Below are positions 3,390 through 61,120 of a stretch of 64,000 nucleotides of DNA, in pieces. A model generated the notes under the pieces. The model worked only from the letters and a program-made list of their open reading frames with translations. It was not told where the DNA came from and ran no database searches. A program made the position numbers and the translations under genes. The DNA is from Escherichia coli. GTDB taxonomy: Bacteria; Pseudomonadota; Gammaproteobacteria; Enterobacterales; Enterobacteriaceae. The DNA lies in NCBI RefSeq assembly GCF_003790525.1, contig NZ_CP033635.1; one strand, given 5' to 3'. Positions within the stretch are counted from its first letter, which is position 1. Each line of letters begins with the position of its first letter.

Positions 3390-5526
3390 GATGCTGGCTT
3401 ATCAGATTCAGTACGTCGCGCACGCTGTCGAGCATAGGCGTACCTGGACCATAAATCGCCGCCACGCCGCGCTCCTGCAGGAAGGCGTAATCCTGCGGCG
3501 GAATGACGCCACCCGCGACCACGCAGATATCTTCGCGTCCCCATTTTTTCAGCGCTTCGACCAGTTCCGGGATCAGCGTTTTATGACCGGCAGCCAGTGA
3601 AGATGCGCCCACTACGTGAACGTCGTTTTCTACTGCCAGGCGGGCGATCTCTTCAGGTGTAGAGAACATCGGGCTTAAATCTACGTCGAAACCGAGATCG
3701 GAATAGGCGCTGGCGATCACTTTCGCGCCGCGATCGTGCCCATCCTGGCCCATTTTGGCGATCAGAATGCGCGGACGACGACCATTGTCGGCAAGGAACT
3801 GCTCCGTTTGCGCAACAATGGCATCGAACTCGGTGGCCGATTTCTCAGACTGATGATAGCTTTGCGCAATCACGCCGGTAACACACTGGCTTGGCACCAG
3901 ATAACGGTCGAAAGCGGCTTCCAGCGCATCGGAAATTTCACCCAGGGTGGCGCGAACGCGAGCGGCATTAACAGCGGCAGCCAGCAGGTTTTCGTTATGC
4001 TGTGCGGCGTGAGTCAGGGCGTTCAACGTGGCGGTTACGGCAGCATCATCACGGGTGGCGCGAATGCGTTCCAGTGAAGCAATCTGCTCGTTACGCACCA
4101 TCACGTTGTCGATCTCAAGTACATCGGTTTCGTCTTCGTGATCCAGTTTGTACTTGTTGACACCAACGATGACACGCTTGCCCTGGTCGATCAGCGACTG
4201 TTCGCGCGCGGAGGCCTCTTCGATCATTCGTTTTGGCAGACCTGCTTCGATCGCTTTCGCCATGCCACCGGCTTCGTCGATCTGTTGGATAATGGCTCTG
4301 GCTTGTTTGACGATTTGATCGGTCAGCGATTCAACGTAATAGGATCCGGCCAGTGGATCGACGGTGCGGCAGAGTTCTGATTCTTCCTGAATGATGATCT
4401 GGGTATTGCGGGCAATGCGTGCTGAGAAATCGGTAGGCAAACCAAGCGCTTCATCAAAGGCGTTGGTATGCAGTGACTGAGTACCGCCCAGCGTTGCAGC
4501 CAGTGCTTCAATGGTGGTGCGGATAACGTTGTTATATGGATCCTGTTCAGTCAGGCTCCAGCCTGAGGTCTGGCAGTGGGTACGCAGCGCCAGTGATTTC
4601 GGATCCTGTGCGCCAAATCCACTGACCGCTTCGCTCCATAAATAACGTGCCGCACGCAACATGGCGACGTTCATAAACAGATCCATGCCAATGCCGAAGA
4701 AGAACGACAGGCGAGGAGCGAAGTCATCAATTTTCAGCCCGGCGGAGATTGCTGCTTTGATGTACTCAATCCCATCAGCGAGCGTAAATGCTACCTGTTG
4801 CACGCAGTTGGCACCCGCTTCACCCATATGGTAACCGCTGATACTGATGGTATTAAATCGCGGCATGTTGCCGGAACACCAGGCGATGATGTCTGCGATA
4901 ATACGCATTGACGGTTTTGGCGGGTAAATATAGGTGTTGCGGCAAAGATACTCTTTGAGGATATCGTTTTGAATGGTGCCGGTCAGTTTATCGGGTGTAA
5001 CACCTTGCTCTTCTGCGGCGACAATATAAAACGCCAGTACTGGTAGTACTGCGCCATTCATGGTCATCGAAACCGACATTTTATCCAGCGGGATCTGGTC
5101 GAACAGGACTTTCATATCTTCCACGGTGTCGATAGCAACGCCCGCTTTGCCGACGTCGCCCGCCACGCGCGGGTTATCGGAGTCGTAGCCTCGGTGGGTG
5201 GCAAGGTCAAACGCAACGGAAAGACCTTTTTGCCCGGCGGCCAGGTTACGGCGATAAAAAGCGTTGGACTCTTTTGCTGTTGAAAAACCAGCATACTGAC
5301 GGATGGTCCACGGTTGGGCGGTATACATAGTGGCACGCGGGCCACGAACGTAGGGGGGCAAACCAGGAAGGGTACCTGTCACCTCCAGATTATCGAGATC
5401 GGCTTCGGTATACAGCGGCTTGATGGCGATCCCTTCCGCGGTTTGCTGAACCAGCGAGTCGACAGTTTTCTCCCGACGGCTCAATTCCTTGTTGGCAAGC
5501 TGTTGCCACTCCTGCACGTTAGACAT
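3382..5526 (-). CDS. scpA: Methylmalonyl-CoA mutase (sleeping beauty mutase), B12-dependent
   Basis: ORF track 721 aa; trimmed to [14 protein letters not shown] (714 aa). The 3' end overlaps the argK start by 8 nt. Confidence 0.88.
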
Positions 5527-51068: not shown

Positions 51069-52694
51069 ATGAATATTTTCACAGAGGCTGCAAAACTCGA
51101 AGAACAAAATTGTCCGTTTGCGATGGCGCAAATTGTTGATAGCCGAGGCTCAACCCCCCGCCATTCTGCACAAATGTTAGTGCGCGCCGATGGCTCTATC
51201 GTCGGTACAATTGGTGGCGGAATGGTTGAGCGGAAGGTGATTGAAGAGTCGCTTCAGGCATTGCAGGAACGTAAGCCGCGATTATTCCATGGACGTATGG
51301 CTCGTAACGGTGCGGATGCTGTCGGGTCAGATTGTGGAGGTGCAATGTCAGTATTTATCAGCGTCCATGGTATGCGTCCACGTCTGGTGTTGATTGGCGC
51401 GGGGCATGTCAACCGGGCGATAGCCCAGAGTGCGGCGCTATTAGGATTTGATATCGCCGTTGCCGATATTTATCGCGAAAGCCTCAATCCTGAACTATTC
51501 CCACCATCAACCACGCTTCTCCATGCTGAGTCGTTTGGTGCGGCAGTGGAAGCACTGGATATTCGCCCTGATAATTTTGTCCTGATTGCCACGAATAATC
51601 AGGATCGTGAAGCCCTCGACAAACTCATTGAACAACCCATTGCATGGCTGGGGTTGCTGGCAAGTCGCCGCAAGGTTCAGCTTTTCCTGCGCCAATTGCG
51701 TGAGAAAGGCGTGGCTGAAGAACATATTGCCCGTTTACATGCGCCCGTTGGTTACAACATAGGTGCGGAAACGCCGCAGGAGATCGCCATCAGCGTGCTG
51801 GCAGAAATATTACAGGTGAAAAATAACGCGCCGGGTGGGCTGATGATGAAGCCTTCTCATCCTTCCGGACACCAGCTGGTGGTGATTCGCGGTGCGGGGG
51901 ATATCGCCAGTGGTGTAGCGCTACGTCTGTATCATGCGGGTTTTAAAGTGATCATGCTGGAAGTGGAAAAACCGACAGTGATTCGTTGTACCGTGGCATT
52001 TGCCCAGGCCGTGTTCGATGGCGAAATGACGGTCGAAGGCGTCACCGCCCGCCTGGCAACCAGCTCTGCGGAGGCGATGAAACTTACCGAACGCGGATTC
52101 ATCCCTGTGATAGTAGATCCCGCCTGTTCATTGCTTGATGAACTGAAACCGCTTTGCGTGGTGGACGCTATTCTGGCGAAACAGAATTTGGGAACGCGGG
52201 CAGATATGGCACCAGTAACAATCGCGCTTGGGCCGGGCTTTACTGCAGGGAAGGATTGTCATGCGGTAATTGAAACAAATCGCGGGCACTGGCTCGGTCA
52301 GGTGATTTACTCTGGTTGTGCGCAGGAGAATACCGGTGTTCCTGGCAATATTATGGGGCATACCACCCGACGGGTGATCCGTGCTCCTGCTGCAGGCATT
52401 ATGCGATCCAACGTGAAATTAGGCGATCTGGTGAAAGAGGGCGATGTGATTGCCTGGATTGGTGAGCATGAAATTAAAGCACCGTTGACGGGGATGGTGC
52501 GTGGCTTGTTGAACGACGGACTGGCAGTGGTCGGTGGTTTTAAAATTGGTGATATCGATCCTCGTGGTGAAACGGCTGATTTCACCAGCGTTTCTGATAA
52601 AGCCCGGGCGATTGGCGGCGGCGTACTTGAGGCGTTAATGATGTTGATGCATCAGGGCGTTAAAGCGACAAAAGAAGTGCTGGAAGTGGCTTAA
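51069..52694 (+). CDS. yqeB: XdhC/CoxI-family maturation protein YqeB (selenium-dependent molybdenum hydroxylase system)
   Basis: 541-aa ORF MNIFTEAAKLEEQNCPFAMAQIVDSRGSTPRH. Confidence 0.85.
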   Translation: MNIFTEAAKLEEQNCPFAMAQIVDSRGSTPRHSAQMLVRADGSIVGTIGGGMVERKVIEESLQALQERKPRLFHGRMARNGADAVGSDCGGAMSVFISVHGMRPRLVLIGAGHVNRAIAQSAALLGFDIAVADIYRESLNPELFPPSTTLLHAESFGAAVEALDIRPDNFVLIATNNQDREALDKLIEQPIAWLGLLASRRKVQLFLRQLREKGVAEEHIARLHAPVGYNIGAETPQEIAISVLAEILQVKNNAPGGLMMKPSHPSGHQLVVIRGAGDIASGVALRLYHAGFKVIMLEVEKPTVIRCTVAFAQAVFDGEMTVEGVTARLATSSAEAMKLTERGFIPVIVDPACSLLDELKPLCVVDAILAKQNLGTRADMAPVTIALGPGFTAGKDCHAVIETNRGHWLGQVIYSGCAQENTGVPGNIMGHTTRRVIRAPAAGIMRSNVKLGDLVKEGDVIAWIGEHEIKAPLTGMVRGLLNDGLAVVGGFKIGDIDPRGETADFTSVSDKARAIGGGVLEALMMLMHQGVKATKEVLEVA

Positions 52695-52699
52695 ATGAA

Positions 52700-52733
52700 A
52701 ATGGCCGGATGGTATTACCCATCCGGCCTTTAA
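52700..52733. terminator. Bidirectional terminator hairpin between convergent yqeB and yqeA
   Basis: ggccggatgg-tatta-cccatccggcc hairpin flanked by A/T runs. Confidence 0.5.
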
Positions 52734-52734
52734 A

Positions 52735-53667
52735 TTACTGACAAATCACCGTTCCGGTTTTGCCTTCAATCCCTTCTTTCGCTTTGCTCAATACGGTAAT
52801 CAGTGCTTCACGACCTGCGCGAGAGCGAGCAAACGAGGCGGCAGCTTCCACTTTAGGCAGCATAGAACCTTTCGCAAAATGACCTTCTTCGATAAAGCGT
52901 TCAGCATCACTTAACGACAGGCGATCGAGCCACTGTTCATTCTCTTTTCCGAAGTTAATGGCCACTTTTTCTACCGCAGTCAGAATGATCAGCATATCGG
53001 CATCGATCATTTCTGCTAAACGGGCGCTGGCCCAGTCTTTATCGATAACCGCGCTGGCACCACGCAGATGGTTACCTTCACGAATAACAGGGATACCACC
53101 ACCGCCAACGGTGATCACCACCTGTCCGGCATCTACCAGCGCTTTAACCGTTTCTTTTTCAATGATATCAACCGGTTTTGGCGAAGCAACGACACGACGA
53201 TAGCCGCGACCAGCATCTTCTTTCAGGGTGTAGCCCTGTTTTGTCAGTTGCTCTGCTTCTTGCTCGGTAAAGAATGAACCGATCGGCTTGGTCGGGTTGA
53301 GGAATGCCGGGTCGTTAGCATCGACTTCGACCTGGGTAACCAGCGTTGCTACAGGTTTATTAATGCCCCGAGAAAGCAGTTCTTCTCTTAAAGCGTTTTG
53401 TAGATCGTAACCAATATAACCCTGGCTTAATGCAACACAGACAGACATCGGCAGCATTGGCGAGTGCGCTTCAGTTTTTGCGGCAGCTTCAAAGGCCTGG
53501 TTAATCATGCCCACCTGCGGCCCGTTACCATGAGTGACGATAACTTCATGTCCCTGGGCAATTAAATCAACAATTGCCTGAGAAGTAATTTTTACCGCTT
53601 TCATTTGTCCGGCCAGGTCATCGCCCAGCGCATTCCCGCCCAGGGCGAGAACAATTTTCTTACTCAT
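52735..53667 (-). CDS. yqeA: Carbamate kinase-like protein
   Basis: 310-aa ORF MSKKIVLALGGNALGDDLAGQMKAV, amino-acid kinase fold. Confidence 0.88.
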   Translation of the reverse strand: MSKKIVLALGGNALGDDLAGQMKAVKITSQAIVDLIAQGHEVIVTHGNGPQVGMINQAFEAAAKTEAHSPMLPMSVCVALSQGYIGYDLQNALREELLSRGINKPVATLVTQVEVDANDPAFLNPTKPIGSFFTEQEAEQLTKQGYTLKEDAGRGYRRVVASPKPVDIIEKETVKALVDAGQVVITVGGGGIPVIREGNHLRGASAVIDKDWASARLAEMIDADMLIILTAVEKVAINFGKENEQWLDRLSLSDAERFIEEGHFAKGSMLPKVEAAASFARSRAGREALITVLSKAKEGIEGKTGTVICQ

Positions 53668-53714
53668 TTTTCCTCACTCATCATTCTTGATTGTGTATAG
53701 ATCCCTGGCAGTGG

Positions 53715-55100
53715 TTAGAGCACGGGAGGGACAAACGGTTTGCGTCGCAGGAAACGACCTCGCCCGGCTTTGCCTGTAAAGGTGCCGTCACAGAAAATCG
53801 TTTCACCACGGGATAAGGTTCTGACAATCGCGCCCTGACAGGTAAAACCCTCCCATGGCGAGTAGTCGGCGTTGTCGTGGAGATGGCGATGCTGAATTTG
53901 TTGGCTCTGACGTGGGTCGATAATCACCACGTCGCCATCGGAACCGGGCGCTAATAATCCTTTTTGCGGCCACAGGCCAAACAGCCTGGCGGGCATTGCG
54001 CTGGTTAATTCAACAAAGCGTTCCGGTGTTATACGTCCCGTCATTACGCCACTGGAAAACAGTAACTGCATGCGGTTTTCCACACCGGGTAAGCCATTTG
54101 GGCAGCGACTGAAATCGCCTTTAGAAATTTGCAGGCGTTGAGCCATCGAGAACGTGCAGTGATCGGTCGCTACCACGTCAATCGCACCATCGCTGATGCC
54201 ACACCACAGTTTGTCCTGCTCGCGTACGTTACGCAGCGGTGGGCTAAGAATGAACTTCATGCCATCTTCTGTATCGTAACTGCGTTCGTCCAACAGGAGA
54301 TATTGTGGGCAGGTTTCAACCCAGACTGGCTGGTGATTCGCACGGGCAAGACGCAGATAATCCAGACCTAAGCCGTTAGACAGGTGCACGATATAGAGCG
54401 GGGCGTTACCGGCAATTTGTGCCAGGTTAATCATGCGGGCGATGGCTTCCGCTTCGCATTCCAGAGGGCGACTCAAGGCGTGATAGCGCGGCGCGGTTAA
54501 CCCTGCGGCGATAAACTCCGCCCGCTTGCTGGCGATAGCCGCATCATTTTCCGGGTGCACGGTGGTCAGCGCGCCGGATTCATGCAGACGGCGTAATGCC
54601 TGCAACACTTCATCATCGTTGAGTTTGTATTGATAGGTTAAATAGAGTTTAAAACTGCTCAGCCCTTCCTCGACCATCATCGGGATTTCGTCGAGGATGG
54701 CGTGATTAATGTGCTGGATCACACCGTGAAAGCTGTAGTCGATGACCGCCTTATGGGCGGCATAACCACGATAAACCTCCAGTTGATGGCGTAACCGGCA
54801 GCCATTCGGGCCAAATCCCATATGGTCAATAATGGTTGTTGTACCGCCACACGCAGCTGCGCGGGTACCGGTAAAAAAATCATCACAACTGCGCGCGATG
54901 CCGACATCAATATTGAAATGCGTATGGACATCCACGCCGCCAGGGAAAACGTAACAGCCAGTGGCATCAATTTCTTCATACGGGAGCTGCGGCGAAATAT
55001 TGTTGCCCAACTGGCGAACAATCCCGCTTTCAATCAGCAAATCCTGTTTGGCTTGTCCATCTGCGTTAACGACAGTGCCGTTTTTGATCAATACGCGCAT
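53715..55100 (-). CDS. hyuA: D-phenylhydantoinase (cyclic amidohydrolase/dihydropyrimidinase family)
   Basis: ORF track 465 aa; trimmed to MRVLIKNGTVVNADGQAKQDLLIESG (461 aa) with SD ggag; metal-binding HTH motif. Confidence 0.85.
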   Translation of the reverse strand: MRVLIKNGTVVNADGQAKQDLLIESGIVRQLGNNISPQLPYEEIDATGCYVFPGGVDVHTHFNIDVGIARSCDDFFTGTRAAACGGTTTIIDHMGFGPNGCRLRHQLEVYRGYAAHKAVIDYSFHGVIQHINHAILDEIPMMVEEGLSSFKLYLTYQYKLNDDEVLQALRRLHESGALTTVHPENDAAIASKRAEFIAAGLTAPRYHALSRPLECEAEAIARMINLAQIAGNAPLYIVHLSNGLGLDYLRLARANHQPVWVETCPQYLLLDERSYDTEDGMKFILSPPLRNVREQDKLWCGISDGAIDVVATDHCTFSMAQRLQISKGDFSRCPNGLPGVENRMQLLFSSGVMTGRITPERFVELTSAMPARLFGLWPQKGLLAPGSDGDVVIIDPRQSQQIQHRHLHDNADYSPWEGFTCQGAIVRTLSRGETIFCDGTFTGKAGRGRFLRRKPFVPPVL

Positions 55101-55110
55101 AGCAAACTCC

Positions 55111-55135
55111 AAAAACCCTCCGGCGAACCGGAGGG
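55111..55135 (-). terminator. Intra-operon Rho-independent terminator/attenuator between ygeY and hyuA
   Basis: Minus strand reads ccctccgg-ttcg-ccggaggg followed by ttttt, then the hyuA SD and ATG. Confidence 0.5.
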
Positions 55136-55152
55136 GAATAAGTGAAGAGTAA

Positions 55153-56364
55153 TTATTCGGTTGCCAGCCAGCTTAACGGGATTGCAGCGTACATCGCGGC
55201 ACAGGTCACCAGGTGAGATTTCCAGGTTTTTTCGTTAGGTGCATGCGCTTCAGGTTCTTTACCCGGGCCAAAGCCGATCACCGGAATGCCGTGACGGCCC
55301 ATGATAGATACGCCGTTAGTTGAGAAGGTCCACTTATCAACAACCGGCGCTTTGCCAAACAGCCCTTCGTAGGCATTCACCAGTGCTTTAACGGTGAAGT
55401 GATCTTCTTCCACTTTCCAGGTCGGGAAGTAGCATTCGGTTGGGTAAACCAGGCCAGTCCAGGACGGACGGTCGTAGTTGTACATAGAAACAACCGCGTT
55501 AGCTTTCTGTACTGCAGGCAGGGCGCGGATTTCGTCCAGCGCGCCTTCCCAGGTTTCGCCCCAGGTCAGACGGCGGTCAATAGAGACGGCGCAGCTATCT
55601 GCTACAGCGCAACGGCTTGGGGATGTGAAGAAGATTTCAGAAACGGTGAGGGTGCCTTTGCCGAGGAATTCGTCATAACCCAGACGTTGGGAGAGTTCTT
55701 GTAATTCGCCAAGAATCGGACCCATTTTGAAAATGGCGTTGTCACCGCGTTCTGGTGCAGAACCGTGGCAGCTAACACCCTGAACATCAATACGAATTTC
55801 CATACGACCGCGCTGACCACGGTATACCTGGCAGTCGGTTGGTTCGGTACTGACCACAAATTCCGGGCGAATGCCGGATTGTTCAATAATGTACTGCCAG
55901 CATAGGCCGTCGCAGTCTTCTTCCTGCACAGTACCGGTAACCAGCAGGGTATATTCATCTTCCAGACCGAGGTCTTTAATGATTTTACCGGCATAAACCA
56001 TAGATGCCATGCCGCCTTCCTGGTCGGAAGTACCGCGACCACCGATCAACTCATCAGTTTCCATGCCTTCGTACGGATCGAAGTCCCAGTTTTTGATGTT
56101 GCCAATGCCGACGGTATCGATATGAGCGTCCATTGCCACCAGACGCGGGCCGTGGCCGATATAACCGAGAACGTTGCCCATCGGGTCGATTTCAACTTTA
56201 TCGAAGCCGACTTTTTCCATCTCTTCTTTAATACGATGTACTACGCGTTTTTCGTCGCAGCTTTCACTGGGAATAGCAACCATGTCGCGCAGGAAGCGAG
56301 TCATGTCCGCCTGGTAATCTTTTGCTTTTTCAAGAATCAGTTTGAATGGAATATTCTTAGCCAT
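55153..56364 (-). CDS. ygeY: M20-family peptidase/deacylase (ArgE/DapE-like)
   Basis: 403-aa [38 protein letters not shown]. Confidence 0.88.
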
Positions 56365-56421
56365 TATTTTTCTCCAGATTTTTTACTCCCCGTTTTGCAG
56401 GGAGCAGTTCCAATAGGGTGA

Positions 56422-57618
56422 TTAAGGTGCTACAGCGTGTTTGCCTTCCCAGACAACTTCGCGGTAGTGCTTCACGTCTGTGTCGCCTTCAGTGCTGATA
56501 ACCAGCACTACGGCATCTTTGTTCAGCGCCAGTTTTTCCATCAGGCTTTGACGTTGCGGGTGATAATGAACCGCTGCGAGAACGCCCAAACCGACAGCGC
56601 CGGATTCACCGGAGATGATGCGCGGGTCGTTGCCGTACGGATTACCCAGCACGCGCATACCTAATGCGGCAACGCTGTCCTGGCAGGAGATGAATTGGGT
56701 GGCGCAGTTACGTAGGATTTCCCAGCCCAGCGGGTTAGGTTCGCCACAGGCCAGGCCCGCCATGATGGTGGCCATATCACCGCCAACGTTGACGATGTCG
56801 CCTTTGACGCCGGAGCGATAAATACAGTCAGCTTTGTCAGGTTCAACAATAATGCTGTGCAGATTTTGCGGGCTGTAGACGTCGACCAGATAACCCAGCA
56901 CACCACCGGCCATTGCACCGACACCAGCTTGCAGCAGAACGTGTGTCGGGGTTACGCCCATTTCACGCATTTGCTCGACGGCTTCATCTGCCAGTGTTGC
57001 GTAGCCTTGCATGATCCAGGTTGGGATTTTGGTGTAACCTTCCCATGCTGTATCCTGTACCACTTCCCAGCCGTGCTGCTGCGCGTGTTGCATGGTCAGG
57101 CGAACGGTATCGTCATAGTTCATATCCGTGACGATGCACTCGGCACCGAGGTTCAGAATGGCGTCAACGCGTTCCTGAGCAGAACCTTTCGGCATGTAAA
57201 TCACCGCATTCTGTCCGAGTTGCTGTGCTGCCCATGCCACACCGCGCCCGTGGTTGCCGTCGGTGGTGGTCGCGAAGGTCATTTTTTCGCCGATGGCATT
57301 TTTCAGATGCTCAAATGACAGCGTTTCGATATCAAGATGATATTTTTCACACAATAATTGAGCGATGGCGTACGCACCGCCGAGCATTTTGAAGGCGTTC
57401 AGACCGAATCGTTTTGATTCGTCTTTGACGAGAATTTTCTTCACACCAAAAAGGTTTGCGAGATCGTCCAGCGCACAAAGCGGTGTTGGGCGATAACCAG
57501 CAATTTTCTGGTGGAACTGGCGCGCCAGTTTGGCCTGGCTTTGCGAAAAGAGCGGTGATGTTTCGCCGTTGAAAAATTTGTTATCGGCGATATCAATCTT
57601 CAATGAGAAAACGGACAT
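56422..57618 (-). CDS. ygeX: Diaminopropionate ammonia-lyase (PLP-dependent)
   Basis: 398-aa ORF MSVFSLKIDIADNKFFNGETSPLF. Confidence 0.88.
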   Translation of the reverse strand: MSVFSLKIDIADNKFFNGETSPLFSQSQAKLARQFHQKIAGYRPTPLCALDDLANLFGVKKILVKDESKRFGLNAFKMLGGAYAIAQLLCEKYHLDIETLSFEHLKNAIGEKMTFATTTDGNHGRGVAWAAQQLGQNAVIYMPKGSAQERVDAILNLGAECIVTDMNYDDTVRLTMQHAQQHGWEVVQDTAWEGYTKIPTWIMQGYATLADEAVEQMREMGVTPTHVLLQAGVGAMAGGVLGYLVDVYSPQNLHSIIVEPDKADCIYRSGVKGDIVNVGGDMATIMAGLACGEPNPLGWEILRNCATQFISCQDSVAALGMRVLGNPYGNDPRIISGESGAVGLGVLAAVHYHPQRQSLMEKLALNKDAVVLVISTEGDTDVKHYREVVWEGKHAVAP

Positions 57619-57675
57619 ATCCTATCCTTTTGGCCTCTGGAAATAGAGGGCCGACCAGCTGATCGGCCCGAGGGG

Positions 57676-58866
57676 TTATTTCACGCGTTCTTGCGCTTCT
57701 TTCAGCAGTTGCTCGAGCAGTGCACCTGGTTTGGCGTATTTACGGGACAGGATCATCGCGGCGATGATATAAGGCTTCCAGCTGGCTTCTTTGTAGGTAG
57801 CGATACGGTATTTTTCGAATACGCCTTCAGTCACTTCACCTTCTTTACAGGATACACCGCTGATATCAGCTGGCAGGCAGTGCATGTACAGGGCTTCGCC
57901 ATCACGGGTCAGTTCCATCATCTCTTCAGTACAATGCCAGTCTTTGTGTTGCGCGTTCTGTGCCAGACACTGTTTTTCCAGTGCTTTTAAGCCTTCGTGA
58001 TCGTTCGCACGCAGCAATTCAGTACGCTCTTCCATCACTTTGTAAGGTGCCCATGACTTCGGATAAACGATGTCTGCGTCTTTGAAGGCTTCTTCCATGC
58101 TGGTGACCTGACGGAAGCTACCGCCGGAGGCTTTAGCATTGTTTTTAGCGACTTCAACGACATCCGGGATCAGGTCGTAGCCTTCCGGATGGGCCAGGGT
58201 GACATCCATACCGAAGCGAGTCATCAGACCGATGATGCCTTGTGGTACAGAGAGCGGTTTGCCATAGCTTGGGGAGTAGGCCCAGGTCATGGCGATTTTT
58301 TTACCTTTCAGGTTTTCCAGTGAACCAAAGTGTTCACGTAACCATGCCAGGTCAGCCATTGACTGAGTCGGGTGGTCAATATCGCATTGCAGGTTCACTA
58401 AAGCCGGACGTTGCGGCAGCACACCCTGCTTGTAACCGTCATCAAGTGCAGCGCCAACTTCACGCATATAGGCGTTGCCTGCGCCCAGATACATATCGTC
58501 GCGAATACCAATAGCGTCGGCGCAGAAGGAGATCATATTGGCGGTTTCACGCACGGTTTCGCCGTGAGCGATTTGTGATTTGCCTTCGTCGAGATCTTGC
58601 TGTGCAAGGCCGAGCAGGTTAAGCGCGGAAGCATAAGAGAAGCGGGTACGGGTGGAGTTGTCGCGGAATACGGAAATACCTAATCCACTATTAAAGACTT
58701 TGGTTGAGATGTTTTCAGCACGCAGTGCTTTTAATGCTGCGGCAACGTCCAGTACTTGTTTCAGTTCATCTGGCGTCTGTTCCCACGTTAACAAAAAATC
58801 TTTCTCGTGAAGGTGAGAGGTCAGCGAATTGATATCCTTAATCAGCTCATTAACAGTTTTCATCAT
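57676..58866 (-). CDS. ygeW: Carbamoyltransferase YgeW (aspartate/ornithine carbamoyltransferase fold; reported as oxamate carbamoyltransferase)
   Basis: 396-aa ORF MMKTVNELIKDINSLTSHLHEKDFLLTWEQ. Confidence 0.88.
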   Translation of the reverse strand: MMKTVNELIKDINSLTSHLHEKDFLLTWEQTPDELKQVLDVAAALKALRAENISTKVFNSGLGISVFRDNSTRTRFSYASALNLLGLAQQDLDEGKSQIAHGETVRETANMISFCADAIGIRDDMYLGAGNAYMREVGAALDDGYKQGVLPQRPALVNLQCDIDHPTQSMADLAWLREHFGSLENLKGKKIAMTWAYSPSYGKPLSVPQGIIGLMTRFGMDVTLAHPEGYDLIPDVVEVAKNNAKASGGSFRQVTSMEEAFKDADIVYPKSWAPYKVMEERTELLRANDHEGLKALEKQCLAQNAQHKDWHCTEEMMELTRDGEALYMHCLPADISGVSCKEGEVTEGVFEKYRIATYKEASWKPYIIAAMILSRKYAKPGALLEQLLKEAQERVK

Positions 58867-58957
58867 AAAGTCCCGGTAGTGGAATGACAGGCAAAGTGGT
58901 TTATTTCACTGTGACTTGCCAAAGTGATTGGTGTTTTCACAGCTATACCTAGGACTA

Positions 58958-58972
58958 ACAATAAGTGTGCCA
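58958..58972 (-). promoter_or_regulatory. Candidate sigma-54 (-24/-12) promoter for ygeW
   Basis: Minus strand reads TGGCAC-ACTTA-TTGT about 95 nt upstream of the ygeW ATG; -24 element is perfect, -12 has GT instead of GC. The adjacent divergent gene ygeV encodes a sigma-54 activator. Confidence 0.3.
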
Positions 58973-59341
58973 GAATTATCCACGCGGCTGCGAAAGGCTA
59001 ATTTGACGGATAATGTGTGGGGTTGATCACAAATTGATGCCAGCTTCCGGTTGTTTGTAAAATACGAAAACGTTTGGCTTTTTTTATCGCGTTATTTATT
59101 TGCTGCTAAGTATCAGAAATAAGATAAAGGGACAGGCGATCTCTCTTCAGTTTGATAAACTCACCGCCGTAATTCTCATATTGATATAGAAATGTGATAT
59201 CTCTTCCATAATTTCATTAGAAAGTGATAAAAATCTTATGTTTTTATCAAAGCCAATTTCGCCTGAGTTAATATCATCATGATCTATGAACCATCAACGT
59301 CTTCAATGATCGACTTTTAAGTAAGTCTGGAAGGTAAAGCT

Positions 59342-61120
59342 ATGGAGCTTGCTACTACGCAGTCAGTATTGATGCAAATTCAACCGACAATTCAGCGTTT
59401 TGCCAGAATGCTTGCCAGCGTTTTGCAGCTTGAGGTTGAGATCGTTGATGAAAACTTGTGTCGCGTCGCCGGAACGGGCGCGTATGGGAAGTTTCTTGGT
59501 CGCCAGTTGAGCGGCAACTCACGCCTGCTCCGCCACGTCCTGGAAACGAAAACTGAAAAAGTTGTGACACAGTCTCGCTTCGATCCCCTTTGTGAAGGTT
59601 GCGATAGTAAAGAAAATTGCCGCGAAAAAGCATTTCTGGGTACGCCTGTCATTTTACAGGATCGTTGTGTTGGAGTGATAAGTTTGATTGCCGTTACCCA
59701 CGAGCAACAAGAGCATATTAGTGATAATTTACGCGAATTTTCTGATTACGTTCGCCATATATCCACCATTTTTGTTTCTAAACTTCTGGAGGATCAGGGA
59801 CCAGGAGATAACATCAGTAAAATATTCGCGACCATGATCGATAATATGGATCAGGGCGTGTTAGTGGTTGATGCTGATAATCGTGTTCAATTTGTTAATC
59901 AGACAGCTTTAAAAACACTCGGTGTTGTACAAAATAATATTATTGGAAAACCAGTTCGTTTCAGACCATTAACATTTGAGAGTAATTTTACCCATGGTCA
60001 TATGCAACATATTGTTTCGTGGGATGATAAAAGTGAATTAATCATTGGTCAGTTGCATAACATCCAGGGCCGACAACTATTTTTAATGGCGTTTCACCAA
60101 TCGCATACCAGTTTTTCTGTAGCAAATGCACCTGATGAACCGCATATTGAACAATTGGTTGGCGAGTGCCGTGTTATGCGGCAATTAAAACGACTCATTA
60201 GCCGTATTGCACCCAGCCCATCCAGCGTTATGGTGGTTGGTGAAAGCGGCACAGGTAAAGAAGTCGTCGCCCGTGCAATCCATAAGTTGAGCGGAAGACG
60301 GAATAAACCCTTTATTGCTATCAACTGTGCCGCGATTCCGGAACAGCTTCTGGAGAGCGAACTGTTCGGTTATGTTAAAGGCGCATTTACTGGCGCTTCT
60401 GCCAACGGTAAAACAGGGTTGATTCAGGCGGCGAATACGGGCACGCTGTTTCTCGATGAAATTGGTGATATGCCATTAATGTTGCAGGCTAAATTACTGC
60501 GCGCTATTGAGGCGCGTGAAATTCTGCCGATTGGTGCCAGTAGCCCAATACAAGTCGACATCCGCATCATTTCTGCAACTAATCAGAATTTGGCCCAGTT
60601 CATTGCTGAAGGTAAATTCCGCGAAGATCTCTTCTACCGACTTAATGTTATCCCGATAACTCTGCCACCGCTGCGTGAACGTCAGGAAGATATTGAATTA
60701 CTGGTGCATTACTTTTTACATCTGCATACCCGTCGTCTGGGATCGGTTTATCCTGGCATTGCTCCTGATGTCGTCGAAATATTGCGTAAGCATCGTTGGC
60801 CCGGAAACCTGCGCGAGTTAAGCAATTTGATGGAATATCTGGTTAACGTGGTTCCTTCAGGTGAAGTTATCGACAGCACGCTATTGCCACCAAATCTGCT
60901 GAATAATGGCACAACGGAGCAAAGTGATGTAACAGAGGTCAGTGAGGCGCACCTGTCACTTGATGATGCGGGCGGCACGGCGCTGGAGGAGATGGAAAAG
61001 CAAATGATCCGCGAGGCGCTTTCACGTCATAACAGCAAGAAGGAAGTTGCTGATGAACTGGGCATCGGCATTGCTACGCTCTATCGCAAGATTAAGAAAT
61101 ATGAGTTGTTAAACACATAA
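59342..61120 (+). CDS. ygeV: Sigma-54-dependent transcriptional activator (sensory domain, AAA+ domain, Fis-type HTH)
   Basis: 592-aa ORF with Walker A GESGTGKE, GAFTGA sigma-54 contact motif and C-terminal HTH. Confidence 0.9.
   Translation: MELATTQSVLMQIQPTIQRFARMLASVLQLEVEIVDENLCRVAGTGAYGKFLGRQLSGNSRLLRHVLETKTEKVVTQSRFDPLCEGCDSKENCREKAFLGTPVILQDRCVGVISLIAVTHEQQEHISDNLREFSDYVRHISTIFVSKLLEDQGPGDNISKIFATMIDNMDQGVLVVDADNRVQFVNQTALKTLGVVQNNIIGKPVRFRPLTFESNFTHGHMQHIVSWDDKSELIIGQLHNIQGRQLFLMAFHQSHTSFSVANAPDEPHIEQLVGECRVMRQLKRLISRIAPSPSSVMVVGESGTGKEVVARAIHKLSGRRNKPFIAINCAAIPEQLLESELFGYVKGAFTGASANGKTGLIQAANTGTLFLDEIGDMPLMLQAKLLRAIEAREILPIGASSPIQVDIRIISATNQNLAQFIAEGKFREDLFYRLNVIPITLPPLRERQEDIELLVHYFLHLHTRRLGSVYPGIAPDVVEILRKHRWPGNLRELSNLMEYLVNVVPSGEVIDSTLLPPNLLNNGTTEQSDVTEVSEAHLSLDDAGGTALEEMEKQMIREALSRHNSKKEVADELGIGIATLYRKIKKYELLNT

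Follow-up and report, generated by a model that had tools for sequence, protein, structure and literature searches.

The spacer between ygeY and hyuA in Escherichia coli holds a G+C-rich hairpin with a U-run directly behind it, which probably acts as a working but leaky Rho-independent terminator, constitutive in its action, with the hairpin also capping and stabilising the ygeWXY mRNA. The terminator and its RNA 3′ end are textbook features and have already been catalogued, in a published 3′-end table and as an EcoCyc boundary; comparison of related sequences adds a modest new point, namely that the hairpin without its U-run is conserved across many genera.

Gene cluster and anatomy of the junction

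The window, that is, the whole stretch of 64 kb of DNA analysed here, contains the E. coli ygeW-ygeX-ygeY-hyuA-yqeA cluster for anaerobic urate catabolism. The 1.1 kb around the site are 100% identical to E. coli strain FDAARGOS_497, and the source strain is not K-12. The gene string is divergent from ygeV, a sigma-54 activator gene. RefSeq annotates ygeY and hyuA on the two sides of the site, the same names that the original prediction had given them. The features are listed below in window coordinates.

58957..58973, minus strand: sigma-54 promoter element 5′ of ygeW, CTGGCACACTTATTGTT; same sequence as ChIP-seq site OS30 (PMC4591121)
58866..57676, minus strand: ygeW (RefSeq)
57618..56422, minus strand: ygeX/dpaL (RefSeq)
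56364..55153, minus strand: ygeY (RefSeq)
55155..55153, minus strand: ygeY stop codon TAA (sequence and RefSeq CDS end)
55152..55136, minus strand: spacer of 17 nt between stop codon and stem, pyrimidine/AU-rich (sequence)
55135..55128, minus strand: 5′ arm of the stem, CCCTCCGG (sequence and hairpin scans)
55127..55124, minus strand: tetraloop TTCG (sequence)
55123..55116, minus strand: 3′ arm of the stem, CCGGAGGG (sequence and hairpin scans)
55115..55111, minus strand: U-tract TTTTT (sequence)
55110..55107, minus strand: hyuA Shine-Dalgarno sequence GGAG, 6 bases 5′ of the ATG with TTTGCT between (sequence)
55100..53715, minus strand: hyuA (RefSeq)
55100..55098, minus strand: hyuA start codon ATG (RefSeq CDS start)
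53667..52735, minus strand: yqeA/arcC (RefSeq)
52703..52728, minus strand: hairpin after yqeA, GGCCGGATGGGTAATACCATCCGGCC then ATTTTCATTT (terminator scans)

Read from the ygeY stop codon to the hyuA start codon, the 52-nt spacer and its borders run TAA-N17-CCCTCCGG-TTCG-CCGGAGGG-TTTTT-GGAG-TTTGCT-ATG, in agreement with the hairpin, TTCG loop, ttttt and hyuA Shine-Dalgarno sequence that had been predicted on the minus strand. The stem had been described as a perfect 8-bp GC stem; its eight pairs are indeed perfect, but only seven are G-C and one is U-A, and they enclose a loop of 4 nt. The hairpin has a ΔG of -15.6 kcal/mol and is retained in the centroid fold of its 91-nt context. Directly after the stem comes UUUUU and then GGAGUUU (tail score nT = 3.89), so that both hallmarks of an intrinsic terminator are present, a G+C-rich stem-loop and, immediately behind it, a U-rich tract. 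Terminators typically carry a U-run of 7-9 nt, and the 5-nt run at the E. coli ygeY-hyuA junction is shorter. Only 15 nt, filled by the U-run, the Shine-Dalgarno sequence and its spacer, separate the stem from the hyuA ATG, and every HyuA-encoding transcript must therefore traverse the hairpin. On the 5′ side, comparison of the 17-nt gap with a typical ribosome footprint leads us to estimate that a ribosome at the ygeY stop codon would leave the stem uncovered.

A strict scan of both strands of the 64-kb window (at least eight perfect pairs, at least six of them G-C, and at least four T in the next five bases) returned two matches, the ygeY-hyuA hairpin and the hairpin after yqeA, compared with 0.07 sites expected by chance (mean of 30 dinucleotide shuffles). 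The ygeY-hyuA site was independently listed by a looser terminator scan. On a d'Aubenton-Carafa-type discriminant it scored +29.1 and the yqeA-end hairpin +3.7; the latter closes the gene string and is common to the convergent yqeB. A REP/BIME repeated palindrome was rejected as an identity for the element, since its 20-mer hairpin is single-copy in the window at up to three mismatches and each E. coli genome has one copy of the 91-nt region. True REP units do occur near the locus in K-12, after yqeA.

Of 5426 complete E. coli genomes, 5163 carry the 91-nt region with an identity of at least 95.7%. Eight sampled genomes, the most divergent included, show no change in either stem arm or in the T-run, and the variation seen in the element consists of the loop (TTCG, TTTA or TTCA) plus one T6 U-tract. 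In two divergent lineages, 51 of the 52 spacer positions are identical, whereas flanking third-codon positions are 85-88% identical and synonymous-site divergence near the element reaches 12-15%; by a rough binomial estimate, such spacer identity would be a ~0.5% event under neutrality. These sequence comparisons suggest that the spacer element may be under selection within E. coli.

The RNA 3′ end and the supply of hyuA transcripts

A 3′ end at this site is present in the TRS re-analysis by Bar et al. (PMC10687069) of Dar and Sorek's Term-seq libraries, which were made from E. coli BW25113 in exponential phase in LB (three replicates), with coordinates converted to MG1655. The relevant row of Supplementary Data 2 (PMC10687069) reads 'chr + 3010012 3010020 3010018 0.666667 0 1 0 Primary ygeY'. 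The last base of the stem is 3010012 in MG1655, where the U5 run occupies 3010013-3010017; the peak spans K-12 3010012-3010020 (window 55116..55108), and the dominant 3′ end, K-12 3010018, lies one base past the U5 run at window 55110. The original prediction had identified an intrinsic terminator and named Term-seq as a way of checking it, and both the anatomy and this published end beside the U-run are in keeping with that identity. The call was significant in two of the three replicates at low expression, and its signal of 0.667 equals the mean of 1, 0 and 1 and counts 3′ ends within a local window rather than coverage or read-through. The ygeWXY-hyuA-yqeA genes are barely expressed in LB, the Term-seq condition, and Supplementary Data 2 lists no plus-strand (K-12) 3′ end after ygeW or after yqeA. 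An in vivo 3′ end at this position is compatible with termination or with trimming by exonucleases as far as the hairpin. For E. coli, true termination is favoured by a U5 run that is unchanged and by an end located at its tip.

The sole experimentally supported promoter able to feed the hairpin is the sigma-54 site before ygeW. A promoter scan gave no sigma-70-like site in 55100-55980, the last 880 nt of ygeY, a motif scan gave no sigma-54-like site near the ygeY-hyuA junction, and a full-text search of the sigma-54 ChIP-seq paper yielded neither junction gene name. A separate hyuA promoter was rejected on these results. The anaerobic pathway for urate (2,8-dioxopurine) proceeds in the order SsnA, HyuA, YgeW with YqeA, YgeY and YgeX, urate conversion is impaired in an E. 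coli hyuA mutant, and hyuA, ygeW, ygeX and ygeY all belong to one YgeV iModulon. Because no promoter fits downstream of the hairpin and HyuA is both required and co-expressed with ygeWXY, termination would have to be partial, and we infer that partial read-through is the simplest reconciliation of the promoter, mutant and iModulon facts. The short interval after the hairpin leaves no room for a hyuA promoter, so the transcriptional polarity suggested in the original prediction appears reasonable when it is understood as partial read-through.

Transcription would accordingly start at the sigma-54/YgeV-dependent ygeW promoter and pass through ygeW, ygeX and ygeY, and the nascent RNA just past the ygeY stop codon would fold into the 8-bp G+C-rich hairpin. 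The hairpin and the five U would release some polymerases to give a ygeWXY RNA whose 3′ end lies at the U-run or beside it, and other polymerases would read through; since the U-run is followed at once by the hyuA ribosome-binding site, only the read-through product would encode HyuA and YqeA and thus serve as the sole mRNA for their translation. The 3′-terminal hairpin of the short RNA should block 3′-to-5′ exonucleases, and termination and exonuclease block would both push towards more ygeWXY than hyuA-yqeA message. Relative to YgeW, YgeX and YgeY, HyuA and YqeA are probably held down by the terminator. In one group's reconstitution in vitro, YgeW and YgeY were supplied at ten times the amount of HyuA, which is consistent with such a ratio without demonstrating it. 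The urate pathway of gut bacteria has recently been solved and is being engineered for hyperuricaemia, and a terminator 15 nt before hyuA would be relevant wherever the native ygeW-yqeA string is transplanted or over-expressed.

The element had also been placed inside an operon, a placement on which sources differ. At least one review treats ygeWXY-hyuA-yqeA as a single operon, in line with that description. On the other side, TRS reserves the label 'Primary' for genes standing last in each of their EcoCyc 25.5 transcription units, so a 3′ end that is the primary terminus of ygeY means that EcoCyc already ends the ygeWXY transcription unit there, and the PRECISE-1K paper likewise writes of the 'ygeWXY operon'.

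Conservation of the hairpin and rival readings

A YgeY scan of species-representative genomes yielded 80 loci, with ygeY and hyuA adjacent in 76 of them. Among the four internal junctions, ygeY-hyuA shows the most structure (median MFE z -2.51, with 71% of species below -2), the others having medians of -1.88 (ygeW-ygeX), -0.89 (ygeX-ygeY) and -0.23 (hyuA-yqeA); the 80 nt after yqeA, taken for comparison, gave -2.01. When hairpins with a ΔG of -10 kcal/mol or stronger within 35 nt of the hyuA ATG were counted, 51 of the 60 loci from Enterobacterales, Aeromonas and Betaproteobacteria had one, representing 49 distinct sequences. In pairwise species comparisons, the outer eight base pairs show on average 3.4 double-sided versus 0.39 single-sided changes. 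A covariance-model alignment, which includes four reverse-strand matches and leans towards structure because it is fitted to structure, has 84.3% of cells paired compared with 75.2% in shuffles, and 25 double-change cells compared with 7.7; the observed pairing and covariation values were reached in 0 of 500 shuffles, and all slid controls were lower. In a plain MAFFT alignment the stems are out of register, and RNAalifold is nearly signal-free. A protein-binding DNA palindrome was rejected because stem sequences vary between species while the pairing is kept.

Only eight of the 51 hairpins have a terminator score above zero. E. coli (+29) is second best, and positive scores were also obtained for Morganella, Serratia silvae and Citrobacter amalonaticus. 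In the other 43 species the orthologous hairpin comes without a terminator-grade U-run: the stem is followed by TCTGGAG in Klebsiella, Raoultella, Kluyvera and Enterobacter, and it abuts the Shine-Dalgarno sequence in Erwinia and Mixta. GGAG or GAGG is kept at the hyuA Shine-Dalgarno position across species, and the stem lies 11-16 nt from the start codon in Enterobacteriaceae and Erwiniaceae. The conserved feature thus appears to be the hairpin and not the terminator, and since the hairpin of most other species has no U-run, the function that is conserved may lie in RNA stability and not in termination.

This distribution bears directly on whether the element might be mainly an mRNA-stability or processing element, in the manner of differential operon decay at malE-malF. 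A full ygeW-to-yqeA RNA would then be cut in the U/A-rich stretch past the stem and 3′-to-5′ exonucleases would stall at the hairpin, leaving a stable ygeWXY fragment and a faster-decaying hyuA-yqeA portion. We give this reading a real but clearly minor chance of being the principal one. It draws on the presence of the hairpin in 51 of 60 species as 49 sequences with compensatory changes, at the most structured junction, and on the absence of the U-run in most species, which resembles the protective 3′ hairpins of Dar and Sorek (PMC5927463), reported as having no U-tract and as conserved among enterobacteria; GG|UUU at the stem base also fits the RNase E motif RN|WUU, a motif that carries little information. 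It accounts less readily for the U5 of E. coli, which is uninterrupted, directly follows the stem, is unchanged in sampled strains and scores as a terminator, or for a mapped 3′ end at the end of that run, and the operon is absent from the PMC5927463 supplementary files examined. The supplementary tables of PMC5927463, PMC7815308 and PMC10667835 contain no entry for these genes. The cross-species data favour decay protection as the putative ancestral, conserved role. The two readings, termination and stability, can hold together, and under either one ygeWXY message should exceed hyuA-yqeA message. On a further reading, given a similarly minor chance, a U-tract-independent stem before the hyuA ribosome-binding site may be a post-transcriptional stoichiometry device to which a U-run has been added in E. 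coli and a few other lineages; if true, the stem would fix the ratio of YgeW/YgeX/YgeY to HyuA/YqeA by decay or processing in Enterobacterales, Aeromonas and some Betaproteobacteria.

It seems improbable that the hairpin instead serves hyuA, either as a 5′-terminal shield against RNase E after a cut in the spacer, as in papBA, or as insulation of the ribosome-binding site. The tightly constrained distance of 11-16 nt between stem and start codon would suit such a role, but a spacer of only ~50 nt constrains the position of the stem in any case, and the one end mapped by experiment lies downstream of the stem and is a 3′ end, rather than a 5′ end upstream. Pairing of the flanks with the Shine-Dalgarno region was considered in two forms, both of which were rejected: an outer helix between the 5′ spacer and the hyuA Shine-Dalgarno sequence or ATG, drawn from MFE folds, does no better than shuffled flanks (40 species, median z +0.42), and a translational-coupling helix between the last 10 ygeY codons and the hyuA start, present in the E. 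coli centroid, has a median z of +0.59 (39 species). Pairing slightly below that of shuffled flanks fits selection for an open ribosome-binding site and so lends something to the hyuA-side reading. The attenuation of the original prediction, in the regulated sense of a metabolite, a protein or the position of a ribosome controlling read-through into hyuA-yqeA, has in its favour only that the element lies between genes acting at different steps of one pathway, and we would be surprised if it proved correct. Alternative pairing, a leader peptide and an Rfam element were each looked for and not found: the fold offers no competing structure and its centroid keeps the hairpin, stem-flank pairing is not conserved, there is no leader ORF, and Rfam returned nothing in 52000-60000 (E up to 1) or in 11 related loci (gathering score). 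With a 17-nt gap, a ribosome at the stop codon would also stop short of the stem by our estimate. A constitutive, leaky terminator is the reading that we carry forward for E. coli.

Comparison with known systems

As a leaky terminator, the ygeY-hyuA element resembles the internal terminators of E. coli such as the one after rpsU in rpsU-dnaG-rpoD, in which a G+C hairpin and a U-run lie between co-directional genes, downstream genes rely on read-through and a Term-seq 3′ end falls at the U-run. The rpsU terminus is classed as 'Alternative primary in TU' in the same Term-seq sheet (PMC10687069), whereas the ygeY-hyuA site is an EcoCyc unit end ('Primary') with a U-run of 5 nt that runs into the Shine-Dalgarno sequence of the next gene. 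Like the 5′ stabilising hairpin of papBA, the element is intercistronic and stands directly before the downstream gene; unlike papBA, its mapped end is a 3′ end, and it has no known upstream cleavage site. Engineered tunable intergenic regions use libraries of hairpins between operon genes to set the relative expression of the neighbours. The ygeY-hyuA element shares with them a hairpin in a short spacer and differs from them as a natural element that is not known to be tuned.

The protective hairpins of the malE-malF class (PMC5927463) are similar in having a stable, conserved stem at a cistron boundary with a 3′ end just downstream, and in the expectation of more upstream than downstream mRNA. 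Members of that class are reported to have no U-tract and lie mostly inside the downstream ORF, whereas in E. coli the element is intergenic and carries a U5 run. The orthologues of Klebsiella, Kluyvera, Enterobacter, Erwinia and Mixta fit the protective-hairpin class better than the E. coli element does.

Arms and spacers of the ygeY-hyuA hairpin

In the hairpin between ygeY and hyuA, a probable leaky terminator, the arms (window 55135..55116) pair an anti-SD-like CCUCC with an SD-like GGAGG. Many Enterobacteriaceae carry CUCCC/GGGAG arms, with the real SD located 3 nt further on (e.g., GGGAG-TCT-GGAG), and the 5′ arm is pyrimidine-rich in most hairpin-bearing species.

The ygeY-hyuA spacers of Photobacterium and Vibrio (loci L064, L068, L069, L071, L072, L077, and L079; alignment A4) are about 220–300 nt in length and contain conserved nested hairpins, e.g., CCGTCCCGAGGG...CCCTCGGGATGG, each of which is followed by a T-run. 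No match to these spacers was identified in Rfam. The true start of hyuA in these genera is probably the conserved ATGATTTCACAG, which is located upstream of the start of the tblastn match. In Morganella morganii FAM24679 (L031, ~5240–5290), the U-run/SD unit TTTTTCAGGAGTACC is present twice as a tandem duplication. The spacer of Serratia sp. H1w (L037) contains two long, nearly perfect palindromes (e.g., CTCACCCCACCCCTCTCCCACAGGGAGAGGGGTGGGGTGAG), which suggests that they represent an inserted repeat element.

The ygeW-ygeX junction

A second intercistronic hairpin was identified in the ygeW-ygeX spacer:

57669..57648, minus strand, hairpin GGGCCGATCAGCTGGTCGGCCC

After it comes a U-rich tail, TCTATTTCC, which is weak, and the published K-12 3′-end table contains no Term-seq 3′ end at this hairpin. 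Like the ygeY-hyuA junction, this one shows structure across species; its median MFE z is −1.88.

Genes ygeW and ygeY are those directly before the two structured junctions with conserved hairpins. In a published in vitro reconstitution, YgeW and YgeY were used at a ten-fold higher concentration (0.2 vs 0.02 mg/mL); the match between the hairpin-preceding genes and the more concentrated enzymes may be a coincidence.

Two ends of the gene string

Downstream, the window strain has a single hairpin between the convergent genes yqeA and yqeB:

52703..52728, hairpin between yqeA and yqeB

In K-12 (L082, 11400..11610), by comparison, this hairpin is present twice, on either side of an insertion of ~180 nt that contains REP-like palindromes. 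A Term-seq end at K-12 position 3012394 on the minus strand, tagged as "antisense yqeA," falls at the yqeA-proximal copy.

Upstream of ygeW, a sigma-54 promoter element was found:

58973..58957, minus strand, sigma-54 promoter element CTGGCACACTTATTGTT

This element lies ~90 nt from the ygeW ATG, its −12 element reads TTGT rather than TTGC, and it is identical to the ChIP-seq site OS30 (Bonocora et al., 2015).
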